From the sequence record NZ_KX832927.1: DNA of 64,000 nt; one strand, 5' to 3'. Position 1 is the first letter of the stretch. The number at the start of each line of letters is the position of its first letter. Positions 9,214 to 50,695 of the stretch are shown here, in pieces. Origin of the DNA: a plasmid. Made by a program: the position numbers and the translations under genes. The notes under the pieces are model-generated. The model made no database searches. It saw only the letters and a program-made list of their open reading frames with translations, and was not told the DNA's origin.

Positions 9214-11154
9214 CTATCGTGCTGTGACTATTAAATTCGCACACATTTGAAGTATGGATTGCTCAATTTCATTGAATTTATTGATAAATATAGTGTTTTT
9301 ACCAAATATCCTCTTGAAATAGGCTTCGTTTGTCCCATCTTCGTTCAATACAAAGGTACAGACTTCTATTCCTTCGATTGTTGCTGAGTTGATGATTTCT
9401 TGAGTCTTATTATCATCATTAGGTTCTCCGTCAGTGATAATGAAAATCATCTTTTTCTTTTCCCTTGATAGAGCGATTTCGCTTATTACGGGAATCAAAC
9501 TTTCAGCCAATGGAGTAGAGCCTAAACATCCTTTGTGAGTAAAAACGCCTTGAGAAATACTTGCGCGAAGCGGTGTATATCTTGGCTTCATCGTTTGTAC
9601 TAGTAGTGAATTGGATTCTTCAACGTAAAAAGGAAATGCATAGCAAGCTGTTGAAACACCTGTGATATTTAACCCTTCCAATACTGCAATGACGGAAGAT
9701 AATGCAGCTCGAATACGGGATGTATCAAAGTGGTATTCATGCATTGAGGAACTAGTATCAAGTAAAATAGAACAAGCACAATTTGGGCTTTGGATAACAC
9801 TTTTAGTCTTAAAAATGTTAGTGTTTCCCGTTTTTACACCTGCTAATTTACTGGATTTAATTCTTGCGCCTTGCTCCTTTAACCGTGAAGTGGATGTAGT
9901 ATTATCATGGACTAATTTTTCAAATGACCGGCGTAATCTACATCCTGTATTCAAACTTCTCTTAATATCAAGTGAAGTTATTGTTTGTGTGGCTTGATTA
10001 AAATTTTTCTTCCACTCTGTGTTAATAATCGCAACGTTAAAAAAATCATTAACTATTCCCTTGGAACTCATATCCTTTTTAAGTTGTTCCGTATTCGAGA
10101 TTGTAGATGTTATATCTTGAATAACATTTTCATTTACACTATCGAATGAAACGTCCTTAAAAATATCGTTAAAACTCTCTGGATCTGAATCTAAGTCGTC
10201 AGTATCAGTTTCGGTTGAAACATTGACGTCATTAGGTCCATTTGAACTTTCACCCACACCAGAGCAGTCAGAGTTACCGGAACCGTCAGGGTCATTACCC
10301 TCAGAGTTACCGGAACCGTCAGGGTCATTACCCTCAGAGCTACCAGAACCGTCAGGGTCATTACCCTCAGAGTTACCGGAACCATCAGGGTCATTACCCT
10401 CAGAGTTACCAGAACCGTCAGGGTCATTACCTTCAGAGTTACCGGAACCATCAGGGTCATTACCCTCAGAGTTACCAGCATCGCCAGAGCTACCATTAGA
10501 GGGAGGTAACGTATCTTGTGGTTTGAGCTGAAGGGCTGTTGCTAGAACAATGAATAATTTTTTGGCAATCAGATTGTTATCGACAGTAGTTGTGGATAAA
10601 AGCACCATTTCTAATAATCTATCAACCTTGTCAGAAATTGCTATGGTAAAGATTGAAATGAATTGAAGTTTTAGTTCGTTAATGTTGTTAACAACGACTC
10701 CGTTGTATTTACTTCTACCATGCAGTAAAACATAGTTTATGAAAAACGTTATTTTTTCCTCAATGGAAATGACGGAGTTAATAGGTTTTTCTGTAAAAAC
10801 ATGTTGTCTGACGGCATCCAAGTAATACTTGGCACCACCATAAACATGCTCTAACTTTGATTCAATCCAGATATCTTCGCAAATATTTTCTAATACACTA
10901 ATATATTTATTGCCTGTTTGAGCAACAAATGAAAAATCAGTGAATTTGGCATGTCCAATTTCATGAATTAAAAAACCTAACAAAATATTACCGAAAGATG
11001 TATCAGTTGTGTAAGGAATCCCTATTTCATATTTACCACTTTCAGATACACCACAATACGCTTCGTCAGTAGTAAACTTAATTGAAATGTCAAATTTGCC
11101 AGCTAATACATTAGCAACGATTGCTAATGAGGCTGCACTTCTTAATTGTTTCAT
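9214..11154 (-). CDS. CobT-like protein (646 aa): N-terminal region with HExxH (HEIGH) motif, acidic tandem repeats (DPDGSGNSEGN x7), C-terminal von Willebrand factor A domain
   Basis: 'LIHEIGHAKF' zincin-like motif. Seven 11-aa repeats. VWA MIDAS motif 'LLDTSSSM' and 'IFIITDGEPND'. Paired with the AAA_5 ATPase gene upstream. Confidence 0.7.
   Translation of the reverse strand: MKQLRSAASLAIVANVLAGKFDISIKFTTDEAYCGVSESGKYEIGIPYTTDTSFGNILLGFLIHEIGHAKFTDFSFVAQTGNKYISVLENICEDIWIESKLEHVYGGAKYYLDAVRQHVFTEKPINSVISIEEKITFFINYVLLHGRSKYNGVVVNNINELKLQFISIFTIAISDKVDRLLEMVLLSTTTVDNNLIAKKLFIVLATALQLKPQDTLPPSNGSSGDAGNSEGNDPDGSGNSEGNDPDGSGNSEGNDPDGSGNSEGNDPDGSGSSEGNDPDGSGNSEGNDPDGSGNSDCSGVGESSNGPNDVNVSTETDTDDLDSDPESFNDIFKDVSFDSVNENVIQDITSTISNTEQLKKDMSSKGIVNDFFNVAIINTEWKKNFNQATQTITSLDIKRSLNTGCRLRRSFEKLVHDNTTSTSRLKEQGARIKSSKLAGVKTGNTNIFKTKSVIQSPNCACSILLDTSSSMHEYHFDTSRIRAALSSVIAVLEGLNITGVSTACYAFPFYVEESNSLLVQTMKPRYTPLRASISQGVFTHKGCLGSTPLAESLIPVISEIALSREKKKMIFIITDGEPNDDNKTQEIINSATIEGIEVCTFVLNEDGTNEAYFKRIFGKNTIFINKFNEIEQSILQMCANLIVTAR
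10268..10498. repeat. Perfect to near-perfect 33-bp tandem repeat array (about 7 copies) inside the VWA-protein gene
   Basis: Unit 'cagagttaccggaaccgtcagggtcattaccct' repeated head-to-tail. Encodes 'DPDGSGNSEGN' on the minus strand. Confidence 0.9.
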
Positions 11155-46725: not shown

Positions 46726-47385
46726 TTAAAATGGGAATAAACCGTAATTTTCACAGCCTAGTTCTTCTCTTGATTCTGTTGATATAATAATTTGTTTCAA
46801 TTCGCTCAATAATTTTAATTGTTCAGTAATTACGTTCCTGTTTTCATTGTCAATAATATTTGTACTTGCAATTTCTTCAAATGCATCTTTCATATTGAAA
46901 ATACTCATTCTTTCGATATTCACACAAGTATTAGATGCTAGATAATTAATTAACCAATTTAATTTTACTAATTTATAACAGTAAATAACACAAGTATGAC
47001 CCACTCCAAATTCACCAGATAAAACATTTCTAGCGTGAAACACTAATTCTTCATATACTTTTAGAAATGCTAAACTTTGTGACGTTGCGCGGTGATTCGT
47101 TAATAGTTCATTTACTTTTTCAATATTCGAGGATAGATCATTTTCTTCAGGGAATGTGATTGTCACTGATTCTTGTTGCTGCCATTTTTGATTTTTATTA
47201 TTAAGGTGTATTTCCACATACTTTTGTAACCATATGTATTTAGTTTCATTTGATGGTATGGATGTGTAAAATATAAAAAAAGGAACGTTAAATAATAATG
47301 CGTATTTTATTGTTTTAACAGGAAAACTTAGTTTTACAGTTTCATCAAATGAACTGACAGTTCCTTTAGATTGTACAAAAAACAA
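46726..47385 (-). CDS. Hypothetical protein (219 aa)
   Basis: ORF with no recognised motifs. Confidence 0.45.
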   Translation of the reverse strand: MFFVQSKGTVSSFDETVKLSFPVKTIKYALLFNVPFFIFYTSIPSNETKYIWLQKYVEIHLNNKNQKWQQQESVTITFPEENDLSSNIEKVNELLTNHRATSQSLAFLKVYEELVFHARNVLSGEFGVGHTCVIYCYKLVKLNWLINYLASNTCVNIERMSIFNMKDAFEEIASTNIIDNENRNVITEQLKLLSELKQIIISTESREELGCENYGLFPF

Positions 47386-47554
47386 TCACCCGTTGGATTA
47401 CTGTTTTCAAATATTTCAATCATGAAGTCTGTCCCATAGTCACGTTCATCAATTGAACGTAACACCCACTTATCGCTAGGTATCTGGTTATTAACAATTT
47501 TTTTGCTTCTGTTTCGGTAATGTGCGTTTCAGATCTCATTTTTCCATCCTATCA

Positions 47555-48508
47555 TTAGTATATAAGATTCCTTGCAGCAGCTTCTAAGCGTGTTACACCT
47601 CGTTTGTCATACCGCTGTGTGGTTGCTACGCTACTGTGCCCCATAGCCTCCCTGACAGTAAGTAGGTCCTCACCGAGTTCTAACAGCTTAGTAGCATAGG
47701 TTCGTCGGCAGTCATGGGGGGTAAATGAATCAGAGGCTGAATCTTTCACCAGTTTATCAATAATATACCGTAAACCATCGGTTGTTATTCTATCGCAAGT
47801 CACATCATCATTTTTACGTATGCGGGTAAAAACTGCACCGGTATGATCCCCTCTTACAGTTTCTATCCATAAACGAATACGACGGAGCGTGTCACTTGGC
47901 ATGAAGTTAGTTCTTTCTTTGTTTCCTTTACCCATGATTTTAATGGAGTAATTATCAAAATTGATATCTTCCATATCCAATAAAGTGACTTCAGCACGGC
48001 GCAAACCACAGCCAAGCATTAATGATACAATCGCCGCATCACGTACCGAGACTGCGGTATTTAGGCTATCAAGGTGTTGATAAATAGCAGTTATTTCACT
48101 ACTACTCAGTGAACGCCCTCGACCGATACGGTTCCCACGAATCCGGCGTATGCTTCTAATATCTTGATATGTATCACTGTCTATAATTCGTGATGCTCTG
48201 GCTTCTTCAGCCACCCCTTTAATAGCACTCAGAATTAGGTTTATACTATTAGGTGTCTTTTTCTCCAGTATTAATTTCTGAAGTACCAATTGAACGGCAT
48301 CTCGATCTATGATTGACCAATCGAAAGTAAACGGGTCCATAGCACGAAACAATTTAACCACTGACACTAGGCAGGAGCGCATTGTCTTTTGGCTTTGTTT
48401 GGAACGCAGCCGTAGCAAGTAGCTGGTTGCTGGATTGTTGGTGTTTTTCGTCATGTTATTTACATCAACAATTTCTGTTACGTTGTCACGTAAAATTAAC
48501 TCTCCCAT
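47555..48508 (-). CDS. Tyrosine recombinase (phage-integrase/Xer family; start moved to the ATG with SD 'AAGGAGG', 317 aa)
   Basis: 'LRRAEV', 'HDCRRTYAT', 'GHSSVATTQRY' (RHRY catalytic signature). Confidence 0.8.
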   Translation of the reverse strand: MGELILRDNVTEIVDVNNMTKNTNNPATSYLLRLRSKQSQKTMRSCLVSVVKLFRAMDPFTFDWSIIDRDAVQLVLQKLILEKKTPNSINLILSAIKGVAEEARASRIIDSDTYQDIRSIRRIRGNRIGRGRSLSSSEITAIYQHLDSLNTAVSVRDAAIVSLMLGCGLRRAEVTLLDMEDINFDNYSIKIMGKGNKERTNFMPSDTLRRIRLWIETVRGDHTGAVFTRIRKNDDVTCDRITTDGLRYIIDKLVKDSASDSFTPHDCRRTYATKLLELGEDLLTVREAMGHSSVATTQRYDKRGVTRLEAAARNLIY

Positions 48509-48814
48509 CGGTGCCTCCTTGGTGCTGAAAATCGGTGTGAAAATTGTGGTGAATTCTGGTGCATCAAATAGCATCACTAACCATAAATCATAAAATAAAA
48601 AAAGTTACTACATTAAACGTATATTTAACCGAGTAAAGGGTAGCACAGGTATTTATCATCGAATAGCTAAAATACAGGTATTTGTACGCATTAAAAGGCT
48701 TGCAATCTTTAAACTGTTGTATAATGGAATTACGTAGTAAGTTCTTAAAAATAATAATGATTTTTACATTACTAATTACCTAAATGTTTCGGAGAGGGAT
48801 AATGTCAGCGATAA

Positions 48815-49081
48815 ATGACTTGGGCTTTGGTTTGGTTTGGTTTGGTTATTACATTTTGGATCTGTCTAGCATTTGTCATGTTATTAGTTTACATATTCAA
48901 ATCCGATTTGAATAAGAAAGCCGTGAAAGATGGAAAGCGATATAGCCAATTAAAGATTTACCGAACCATCGAGCGAGATTACAAAATTCTCTACGTGCTA
49001 GGTGATGAAAGTTACAGTATTGAAGTAGATAAGGATTATTACGATGCGGCTATTGATAAATATAATCAGTCTATTAAGTAA
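48815..49081 (+). CDS. Small membrane protein (88 aa) whose 5' end contains a (TTTGG)4 repeat. A better-placed ATG at 48802 is out of frame with it.
   Basis: N-terminal hydrophobic helix. SD 'GGAGAGGG' serves the ATG at 48802 (37-aa frame); see findings. Confidence 0.4.
   Translation: MTWALVWFGLVITFWICLAFVMLLVYIFKSDLNKKAVKDGKRYSQLKIYRTIERDYKILYVLGDESYSIEVDKDYYDAAIDKYNQSIK
48826..48845. repeat. Pentanucleotide microsatellite (TTTGG)x4
   Basis: Direct reading of 'ctttggtttggtttggtttggtt'. Confidence 0.9.
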
Positions 49082-49120
49082 TATTTTTTGTAAATTTCTT
49101 TATTAATCAATGAGGTTGAT

Positions 49121-49375
49121 ATGAATTTAAAAAAACTAGAAATGGTGGTCAGTCTTGCATTTTCGGTAATGATTTTTGTTTTATTTGGTATGTTTCTATT
49201 TGAAGGTTCAATTCGATTAAATGGATTTTTCTTTGTTGTATTATATATTCTTGCTGGTGCAAATATATTTTTGATTACCTATAATCGTAATGGACCAGTC
49301 AGTAAAATTATTGCTTATTCAATTGCTATAATTCTTTTGCTAATACTTATTTTTGCCTTGATATTTGTTCTTTAA
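49121..49375 (+). CDS. Small hydrophobic membrane protein (84 aa)
   Basis: Three hydrophobic helices. SD-like 'gaggttg' upstream. Confidence 0.4.
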   Translation: MNLKKLEMVVSLAFSVMIFVLFGMFLFEGSIRLNGFFFVVLYILAGANIFLITYNRNGPVSKIIAYSIAIILLLILIFALIFVL

Positions 49376-49430
49376 ATTTCAACAAATTTATCATAGTAAA
49401 GTATTAGTGTTTTTTCTCCTGTTTGTAGTA

Positions 49431-49468
49431 GGGGTCTGAGGTCCAACCATGCGAAAAACCACGTTAAG
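49431..49468. repeat. 38-bp terminal inverted repeat of a Tn3-subgroup transposon, interior to the right
   Basis: 'GGGGTCTGAGGTCCAACCATGCGAAAAACCACGTTAAG' compared with the Tn3 IR 'GGGGTCTGACGCTCAGTGGAACGAAAACTCACGTTAAG'. Confidence 0.6.
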
Positions 49469-49694
49469 AAAGCAACCTTCTGAAAAGGCGACGTTTATCA
49501 GTTTTTTTTCCGGCCATAAAGGGGGCGGAAATTATTCCCTGCACGGGTATTCGCAAGGATTTCGGTAGTGCTCTGGCTCTGCCCCCCATAACCTGGCGGA
49601 CAGAGCATGATTGGGAAAGCGGTACCCTCACGGCAGAAACGATTGACGCAGGCTATATTTCTATTATTCTGGAAATATAGATAAAGGAGGTATT

Positions 49695-49875
49695 ATGGAT
49701 TTAAACACTGCTGCAAACGCACTTCGAGAACTGGGCCACCCGACACGTCTCAGCATATACCGGGAGCTGGTCAGGGCGGGTCATGAAGGCCTGCCGGTTG
49801 GCGAACTGCAGAAGCACCTTGAGATTCCTGCCTCCACGCTCAGCCATCATCTTTCAGCGCTGATATCCGCTGGAC
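49695..49875 (+). pseudogene. ArsR/SmtB-family transcriptional regulator, 3' end removed by IS26
   Basis: wHTH 'LSIYRELVRAGHEGLPVGELQKHLEIPASTLSHHLSAL'. The ORF runs into the IS26 IR. Confidence 0.6.
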
Positions 49876-50695
49876 GGCACTGTTGCAAATAGTCGGTGGT
49901 GATAAACTTATCATCCCCTTTTGCTGATGGAGCTGCACATGAACCCATTCAAAGGCCGGCATTTTCAGCGTGACATCATTCTGTGGGCCGTACGCTGGTA
50001 CTGCAAATACGGCATCAGTTACCGTGAGCTGCAGGAGATGCTGGCTGAACGCGGAGTGAATGTCGATCACTCCACGATTTACCGCTGGGTTCAGCGTTAT
50101 GCGCCTGAAATGGAAAAACGGCTGCGCTGGTACTGGCGTAACCCTTCCGATCTTTGCCCGTGGCACATGGATGAAACCTACGTGAAGGTCAATGGCCGCT
50201 GGGCGTATCTGTACCGGGCCGTCGACAGCCGGGGCCGCACTGTCGATTTTTATCTCTCCTCCCGTCGTAACAGCAAAGCTGCATACCGGTTTCTGGGTAA
50301 AATCCTCAACAACGTGAAGAAGTGGCAGATCCCGCGATTCATCAACACGGATAAAGCGCCCGCCTATGGTCGCGCGCTTGCTCTGCTCAAACGCGAAGGC
50401 CGGTGCCCGTCTGACGTTGAACACCGACAGATTAAGTACCGGAACAACGTGATTGAATGCGATCATGGCAAACTGAAACGGATAATCGGCGCCACGCTGG
50501 GATTTAAATCCATGAAGACGGCTTACGCCACCATCAAAGGTATTGAGGTGATGCGTGCACTACGCAAAGGCCAGGCCTCAGCATTTTATTATGGTGATCC
50601 CCTGGGCGAAATGCGCCTGGTAAGCAGAGTTTTTGAAATGTAAGGCCTTTGAATAAGACAAAAGGCTGCCTCATCGCTAACTTTGCAACAGTGCC
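49876..50695 (+). mobile_element. IS26 (820 bp, IS6 family)
   Basis: 14-bp IRs 'GGCACTGTTGCAAA' at 49876-49889 and its complement at 50682-50695. Tnp26 protein is identical in the stretch read. Confidence 0.95.
49939..50643 (+). CDS. tnpA: IS26 transposase Tnp26 (234 aa)
   Basis: 'MNPFKGRHFQRDIILWAVRWYCKYGISYRELQEMLAERG...' canonical Tnp26. Confidence 0.95.
   Translation: MNPFKGRHFQRDIILWAVRWYCKYGISYRELQEMLAERGVNVDHSTIYRWVQRYAPEMEKRLRWYWRNPSDLCPWHMDETYVKVNGRWAYLYRAVDSRGRTVDFYLSSRRNSKAAYRFLGKILNNVKKWQIPRFINTDKAPAYGRALALLKREGRCPSDVEHRQIKYRNNVIECDHGKLKRIIGATLGFKSMKTAYATIKGIEVMRALRKGQASAFYYGDPLGEMRLVSRVFEM

Follow-up and report, generated by a model that had tools for sequence, protein, structure and literature searches.

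A length-variable TTTGG repeat in the helix codons of a small membrane-protein gene of Morganellaceae conjugative plasmids, probably a young frame-switching microsatellite

In the window, i.e. the whole 64-kb stretch of plasmid DNA analysed here (NZ_KX832927.1), a gene for a small conserved membrane protein is probably present as a frameshifted allele, in which a recently expanded coding microsatellite would act as a slow and incidental switch. Length change at this locus is concentrated in the expanded tract of TTTGG units, and the alleles differ in the frame in which they present the gene body to its start codon. We infer that the alleles arise by slippage, that they have consequences for expression and that the rate of change is low, on an evolutionary scale, rather than that of a selected high-frequency switch.

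The (TTTGG)4 repeat is perfect at positions 48826–48845, 24 nt past the ATG at 48802, in the context CTTGGGC(TTTGG)4TT. Together with the trailing TT it was called by TRF at 48826–48847 (plus strand), with a period of 5, 4.4 copies and 100% matches. This length-variable tract lies in the codons of the N-terminal transmembrane helix and is the sole perfect pentanucleotide repeat with at least three copies in the 64-kb window; based on 300 dinucleotide-preserving shuffles, 0.003 pentanucleotide tracts of at least four copies are expected per window. As is typical of contingency loci, the repeat is perfect, has a unit length that is not a multiple of three and is located within the 5' coding region, so that the gene body enters or leaves the frame of the start as units are gained or lost. 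The working cut-off for hypermutability of pentanucleotide repeats is 5 or more units (PMC6321876), against which the window tract has 4 units and those of its relatives 5–6.

From 5' to 3', the plus strand reads the Shine-Dalgarno (SD) site GGAGAGGG (48791–48798), ATA, ATG (48802), TCAGCGATAA, ATG (48815), ACTTGGGC, (TTTGG)4 and TTATTACA. Translation from ATG 48802 (48802–48915, plus strand) yields MSAINDLGFGLVWFGYYILDLSSICHVISLHIQIRFE, a peptide of 37 aa that ends at the stop codon 48913–48915. The second ATG opens the 88-aa ORF of the ORF list, which contains the gene body and extends to 49081 (48815–49081, plus strand; WP_071547990.1 in CP126336). Because 48802 equals 1 and 48815 equals 2 modulo 3, the long frame is +1 relative to the strong-start frame, and 5 additional nucleotides bring it into phase with ATG 48802. 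The tract, the SD-led ATG 48802, the stop after 37 codons and the +1 frame of 88 aa had all been described in the initial annotation, in full agreement with the sequence, the ORF list and the TRF output.

The SD site that serves ATG 48802, read from the sequence, forms a duplex of -7.0 kcal/mol with the 3' end of the 16S rRNA at normal spacing, which places it in the best roughly 5% among all ATGs in the window, and in the alignment GGAGAGGG is kept in all relatives. ATG 48815 is without an SD site of its own and reaches only the tail of that of 48802, 14 nt off, at -4.8 kcal/mol. According to the alignment, this ATG is a by-chance product of the normal-frame Asn-Asp codons AAT-GAC. Its product in the 4-unit allele retains the whole helix (MTWALVWFGLVITFW...). 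Judged by the in-frame relatives and the SD strength, the true gene start is ATG 48802, an authentic start codon that stands in the wrong frame in the 4-unit allele. The 88-aa gene starting at ATG 48815, which the initial annotation had accepted, is better seen as an annotation by-product of the frameshift: in-frame relatives and distant homologues all start at the 48802 position. The 88-aa gene call in pTAFA (CP126336) is, by this reading, a gene-finder salvage from a frameshifted copy.

A scan of 48450–49500 found no sigma-70 consensus promoter and no terminator upstream of or around the gene; a perfect TATAAT at 48720–48725, with an upstream partner TTGCAA spaced 14 nt from it, was read by eye. 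The divergent gene at 47555–48577 (minus strand) encodes a tyrosine recombinase (Pfam Phage_integrase, E = 1e-29). On the other side, a co-oriented gene from the ORF list (49121–49375, plus strand) encodes a hydrophobic protein of 84 aa, for which no family match was obtained in Pfam, PHROGs or NCBIfam. In all related loci of the Morganellaceae plasmids, this gene is found 3' of the repeat-bearing gene.

This region is part of the backbone in conjugative MOBH/MPF_F plasmids (rep_cluster_1506) carried by Proteus, Providencia, Moellerella and Morganella. Matches to a 181-nt query spanning the tract were obtained in 52 plasmid records; whole TTTGG units are the sole length difference in the alignment. 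Two units are present in 48 of these records (47 with a match span of 171 nt and one more interrupted by IS1), five units in three (186-nt span; CP047288 p152, CP053372 pG32-177 and CP148044 pDZa) and four units in a single one (181-nt span; CP126336 pTAFA). The coding sequences annotated by the depositors begin at the ATG equivalent to 48802 both in the 2-unit records (270 nt, 89 aa) and in the 5-unit records (285 nt, 94 aa). The 94-aa coding sequence of CP047288, CP053372 and CP148044 opens with MSAINDLGFGLVWFGLVITFWICLAFVM, also written MSAINDLGFGLVWFGLVITFW... Thus, the fusion of the strong start to the long frame that had been predicted for one more unit exists in nature as an annotated 5-unit allele in three plasmid records. 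Repeat number was also proposed for comparison between relatives, where invariance would have counted against phase variation; it is not invariant, with 4, 5 and 6 units among near-identical relatives.

For a wider sampling, the exact products of the alleles were looked up in a collection of 15 billion proteins. The 88-aa product of the 4-unit allele was present on 34 contigs (23 read from 61 index blocks), the 94-aa product of the 5-unit allele on seven contigs and the 89-aa forms of the 2-unit allele on 241, 49, 43, 15, 12 and fewer contigs. The 84-aa product predicted for a 6-unit allele (from a TTG start) was found as well, and three Logan contigs from three runs carry (TTTGG)6. This allele has the gene body in the third frame, and translation from the strong start would end after 25 codons. 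Exact look-ups in the same protein collection returned no predicted products of 3-, 7- or 8-unit alleles, no A-type 2-unit product and no 4- or 5-unit products of the 2-unit lineage. Scans for at least three units gave one true metagenome match (4 units), nothing in viral contigs and, in GTDB genomes, one chance match in a Methylophilaceae MAG.

Within its sublineage, the 4-unit allele is found more often than any other. (TTTGG)4 was confirmed in all 12 loci fetched, ten of which encode the 88-aa product and two of which are called as 57 or 52 aa, and in the independent metagenome contig UMIC01011282.1. At least 13 independent assemblies, which come from several species and contexts, carry this allele without change. 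Several of the fetched loci have an intact backbone with no resistance island nearby. Three shorter proteins, P0014 (57 aa), P0005 (52 aa) and P0021 (67 aa), were considered as extra alleles and rejected, as they result from different gene calling on 4-unit DNA. One and the same 4-unit sequence is annotated as 88, 67, 57 or 52 aa (L013, L026, L027 and CP126336 compared to L011), an inconsistency caused by the frameshift.

Two loci deserve a separate description. One of the 12 fetched lies inside a 4.78-Mb chromosome record (CP017671.1:1913554-1919820), where the backbone segment is the same, has the 4-unit allele and shares the island junction; therefore, the plasmid segment also exists in a chromosomally integrated form. 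A Logan contig of 1687 nt (L025, SRR19500616) carries a second, different ORF of 94 aa at 1016–1300, which overlaps the end of the usual 67-aa gene region, and its downstream part has 11–19 mismatches to the other loci.

The repeat had initially been placed at the junction between the backbone and the resistance island. This position holds only loosely, as the junction lies at 49430/49431, about 350 nt past the ORF stop and after the next gene, and the same 4-unit allele occurs in island-free relatives. In two such relatives (L002 and L004), the alignment to the window extends as far as 49430, and the 4-unit allele is also found where the backbone runs on into hok/gef. The resistance island is irrelevant to the tract. 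Its first bases (49431–49468, plus strand), GGGGTCTGAGGTCC...CACGTTAAG, are outside the switch and resemble a Tn3-family terminal inverted repeat; no partner copy of this island-start sequence is present in the window. IS26 begins near 49876, and a gene of the ArsR/HTH_20 type (49695–49892) is cut by the IS26 end at about 49876.

Elsewhere in the window, the strongest tandem array by far is a 33-nt repeat at 10268–10476 (6.3 copies, 93% matches, TRF score 376), which is unrelated to the TTTGG tract. At 47376 and 47497, within 46726–47539 (minus strand), the window has A6 and T7, compared to A7 and T8 in pTAFA, the metagenome contig, L002 and L028. These homopolymer deficits split a DUF4365 gene, encoding 271 aa in the relatives, into ORFs of 219, 43 and 39 aa. 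They represent either an indel error in the record or further homopolymer slippage. The 219-aa form of the DUF4365 gene is also carried by L011 and L022.

The loci with 4, 5 and 6 units belong to one sublineage, recognisable by the markers GCGATAAATGAC upstream and ...DKYNQSIK at the C-terminus. From -240 to +560 nt around the tract they have zero substitutions and unit number alone differs. Across 6272 nt, L011 (4 units) differs from L022 (5 units) by one SNP and one unit, and the same difference of one SNP and one unit separates L014 (4 units) from L021 (5 units) across 4666 nt. Such variation in unit number between otherwise near-identical elements is a further property of contingency loci. 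Another one, maintenance of the repeat across the relatives of the gene, was not found, with 2 units in 48 of the 52 records and no repeat in distant homologues. The 2-unit clade, roughly 8–10% diverged from the window over this stretch, shows a length change in none of its 48 records.

Since the alleles are identical around the tract, this is a real, length-unstable coding microsatellite, of which the window carries a frameshifted (off or low) allele. The tract expanded recently and within a single sublineage. The pattern is the expected signature of replication slippage that starts once a tract exceeds a few units.

How often the length has changed was assessed using the upstream haplotypes of the integrase gene. 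Haplotype hapA occurs with 4, 5 and 6 units and hapB, with 50 differences from hapA, with 4 and 5 units, while a third upstream haplotype (in L030) has 6 units. Combined with unit number, these haplotypes could reflect up to five independent slippage events, and several independent events, as in a four-gamete pattern, could mean a higher rate than assumed here. The four-gamete argument as a proof of recurrent slippage is weakened by the fact that a single crossover, or repeated import of a mosaic integrase segment, gives the same pattern. The haplotypes hapA, hapB, hapC and hapD differ at 50–190 sites, all of which lie more than 100–249 nt upstream of the tract. One crossover suffices because hapA and hapB differ only at sites 249 nt or more upstream of the tract and share identical sequence over the 3 kb downstream. 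A safe minimum is two length changes by slippage; recombination could account for the others.

The tyrosine recombinase region itself (47555–48603, compared to L003, L016 and L030) is a mosaic of at least four haplotypes, which differ at 50–190 sites over about 1.2 kb and abut identical downstream DNA. This arrangement points to recombination just 5' of the repeat-bearing gene.

The encoded protein consists of an N-terminal transmembrane helix and a beta3-alpha domain of roughly 55 aa. An AF2 model built from 11 sequences has a long helix, after which come three strands and another helix, with a pLDDT of 76.7 (65 for the first model). A profile search of 1.8 billion representatives retrieved seven proteins of 89–101 aa with an E-value of 2e-8 or better. 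The family, represented by P0001 and P0022–P0027, comprises proteins of roughly 90 aa that share a variable N-terminal transmembrane helix and a conserved C-terminal domain with the motif G-x-RYS-x-L ... Y-x-LGD ... IEV ... YY ... Y. The window ORF has every one of the invariant residues G46, R48, Y49, L52, Y66, L68, G69, I75, E76, V77, Y82 and Y89, which makes it a member of the family. Homologues at 30–45% identity are all 89–101 aa long, with the N-terminal helix and the conserved C-terminal domain. In the alignment, homologues at 30–70% identity have unrelated helix sequences and no repeat in the helix codons. A hand count from the alignment gave 4 non-synonymous and 7 synonymous differences in the ORF between the two plasmid sublineages, which would fit purifying selection on the gene before the expansion.

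Searches for a function in Pfam, PHROGs and NCBIfam gave nothing above noise, a sequence profile search of the PDB gave nothing, and a Foldseek search of the PDB with the AF2 model produced no match below E = 0.4. Two distant members of the family adjoin TraK, TrbI and NusG-like genes of conjugative elements. One homologue with 31% identity, on an 18-kb contig (L032, Logan SRR31301074), follows TraK, TrbI and a NusG-like gene at a distance of a few genes. This gene neighbourhood suggests that genes of the family are part of transfer or leading regions in conjugative elements.

According to the explanation that we favour, the ancestral helix codons would have held (TTTGG)2 and the tract would have grown in one young sublineage of Morganellaceae MOBH/MPF_F plasmids, its length now being altered by slipped-strand mispairing at replication. 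A simple path would be a 10-nt tandem duplication from 2 to 4 units, causing the frameshift, followed by the gain of one unit to 5, restoring the frame, and then a step to 6. With 5 units, as with 2, the gene would be in frame and on, producing a protein of 94 aa with FGLVW inserted into the helix. With 4 units, as in the window, ribosomes from the strong start would run into the 37-codon dead end and the body would be translated via ATG 48815 only, so that expression would be off or low. With 6 units, the body being in the third frame and the strong start ending after 25 codons, the gene would presumably be off. As the helix is intact, translation from ATG 48815 might nevertheless supply an almost normal protein in useful amounts. 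The commonness of the 4-unit allele could reflect selection, beyond mere tolerance.

Slipped-strand phase variation, as put forward in the initial annotation, thus stands as far as the frame arithmetic, the architecture and the existence of alleles with 4, 5 and 6 units are concerned. Frequent reversible switching was not borne out, given the recent expansion, the stable 4-unit allele, a family without the repeat and the requirement for only two events.

A genuine contingency locus, with frequent reversible switching in plasmid populations that is kept by selection because turning a conjugation-associated membrane protein on and off is useful (against phage, an exclusion system or a fitness cost), is nevertheless the strongest of the alternatives, though we consider it rather unlikely. 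Five-base loops are poorly recognised by MutS, which speaks in its favour. So do the 4-, 5- and 6-unit alleles, which put all three frames in nature, and the occurrence of both the 4- and the 5-unit allele on two upstream haplotypes and of 6 units on two. The architecture is that of opa and licA, in which the repeat is situated in the 5' hydrophobic coding region past the start codon (PMC13183285; PMC2212159). In Neisseria opa, CTCTT repeats lie in the codons of the signal sequence and changes in their copy number cause phase variation (PMC13183285). As in opa, a pentanucleotide unit is located here in a 5' hydrophobic (leader or transmembrane) coding segment just past the start, its copy number frames the body of a membrane protein, and in-frame length changes add only hydrophobic residues. 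The tracts of opa genes are far longer, and experiments have demonstrated that they switch at high frequency. Unlike opa, which is a chromosomal multigene family of a host-restricted pathogen and has no sequence homology to the window gene, the present repeat has 4–6 units, is recently born and resides on a Morganellaceae conjugative plasmid.

The closest precedent in size is hsdM of H. influenzae, encoding a type I methylase. In a passage of PMC2651432 citing Zaleski et al. 2005, it is described as having a coding (GACGA)4 tract, with strains carrying 1, 2 or 4 units, which switches at a high rate as measured via phage sensitivity. With the same unit length, the same copy number of four and a coding location, hsdM as described in that passage indicates that a 4-unit pentanucleotide tract can phase-vary (PMC2651432). 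What sets hsdM apart is its measured switching and the known role of its gene.

Against a contingency locus, the presence of 2 units in 48 of the 52 plasmid relatives and the lack of a repeat in distant homologues imply no long-term maintenance. That the 4-unit allele stays the same in at least 13 independent assemblies speaks against a very high rate, and the product look-ups found no 3-, 7- or 8-unit alleles. Moreover, one crossover within the 249 nt upstream can explain the haplotype pattern, and four units fall short of the minimum of 5 that is usually required for prediction (PMC6321876). It seems equally doubtful, for the Enterobacterales, that we are dealing with a plasmid-borne contingency locus in which a multidrug-resistance conjugative plasmid stochastically switches a transfer-region-associated membrane protein between on, low and off, by an SSR switch just born from a 2-unit precursor.

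More improbable still is a control of expression level by two starts, in which the 4-unit (ATG 48815) and the 5-unit (ATG 48802) alleles are both functional, with an intact helix and a different level or N-terminus, and the null state is limited to the third frame (3 or 6 units). This resembles licA (lic1) of H. influenzae, where start codons lie in two frames ahead of CAAT repeats, alpha/beta and gamma in two of the three frames (PMC2212159). In tabulated clinical specimens licA has 6–33 copies, mostly 18 or more, with switching of the ChoP phenotype at 1e-2 to 1e-3 per generation (PMC2212159). As in licA, the TTTGG repeat is located just past alternative ATGs in two of three frames (48802 and 48815) and unit number picks the start; unlike licA, which has a tetranucleotide unit, the second ATG is here an accident of the Asn-Asp codons without an SD site. 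That ATG 48815 is in frame with the body of the 4-unit allele and keeps the whole helix favours such a control, as does the wide spread of this allele without a second disabling mutation. However, ATG 48815 arises incidentally, has no SD site of its own and sits 13 nt inside the strong-start ORF, where occlusion by elongating ribosomes would be expected, and second mutations are uninformative in so young a clade.

A sequencing or assembly artefact, i.e. a miscounted short repeat without real polymorphism, is very hard to believe: the window is one base short in two homopolymers (47376 and 47497) compared to all close relatives, suggesting some indel error in the record, but the 4-unit allele recurs across NCBI, ENA, Logan and metagenome assemblies from many projects, 5 units are found in three finished plasmids and four other contigs and 6 units in three runs, and the lengths differ by whole 5-nt units in a tract that is not a homopolymer. 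Programmed +1 ribosomal frameshifting on the repeat, joining the 48802 frame to the 88-aa frame so that the 4-unit allele is normally expressed, is the least credible reading, as only the geometry of a body +1 to the strong start recommends it, the sequence showed neither a known +1 shift site nor a stimulatory element, and in-frame 2- and 5-unit alleles dominate the wider family, so that the gene is normally read without shifting; like the artefact, it was rejected.

We thus retain the young, slowly changing microsatellite as the preferred reading. For annotation, it means that a 4-unit allele called as 88, 84, 67, 57 or 52 aa across records corresponds to a true gene from ATG 48802, frameshifted in the window. 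The biological weight of the locus is limited. Frameshift switches based on simple sequence repeats (SSRs) are textbook knowledge in Neisseria, Haemophilus, Campylobacter and Helicobacter; to our knowledge, they have rarely been documented in Enterobacterales or their conjugative resistance plasmids. If a contingency locus were true, the plasmid would hedge against phage, an exclusion or defence interaction, or the cost of carriage, and the locus is a testable candidate for plasmid-level phase variation. With three length alleles covering all three frames in otherwise identical DNA, beside a deep and stable 2-unit clade, it offers a clean natural case of the birth and instability of a coding microsatellite.
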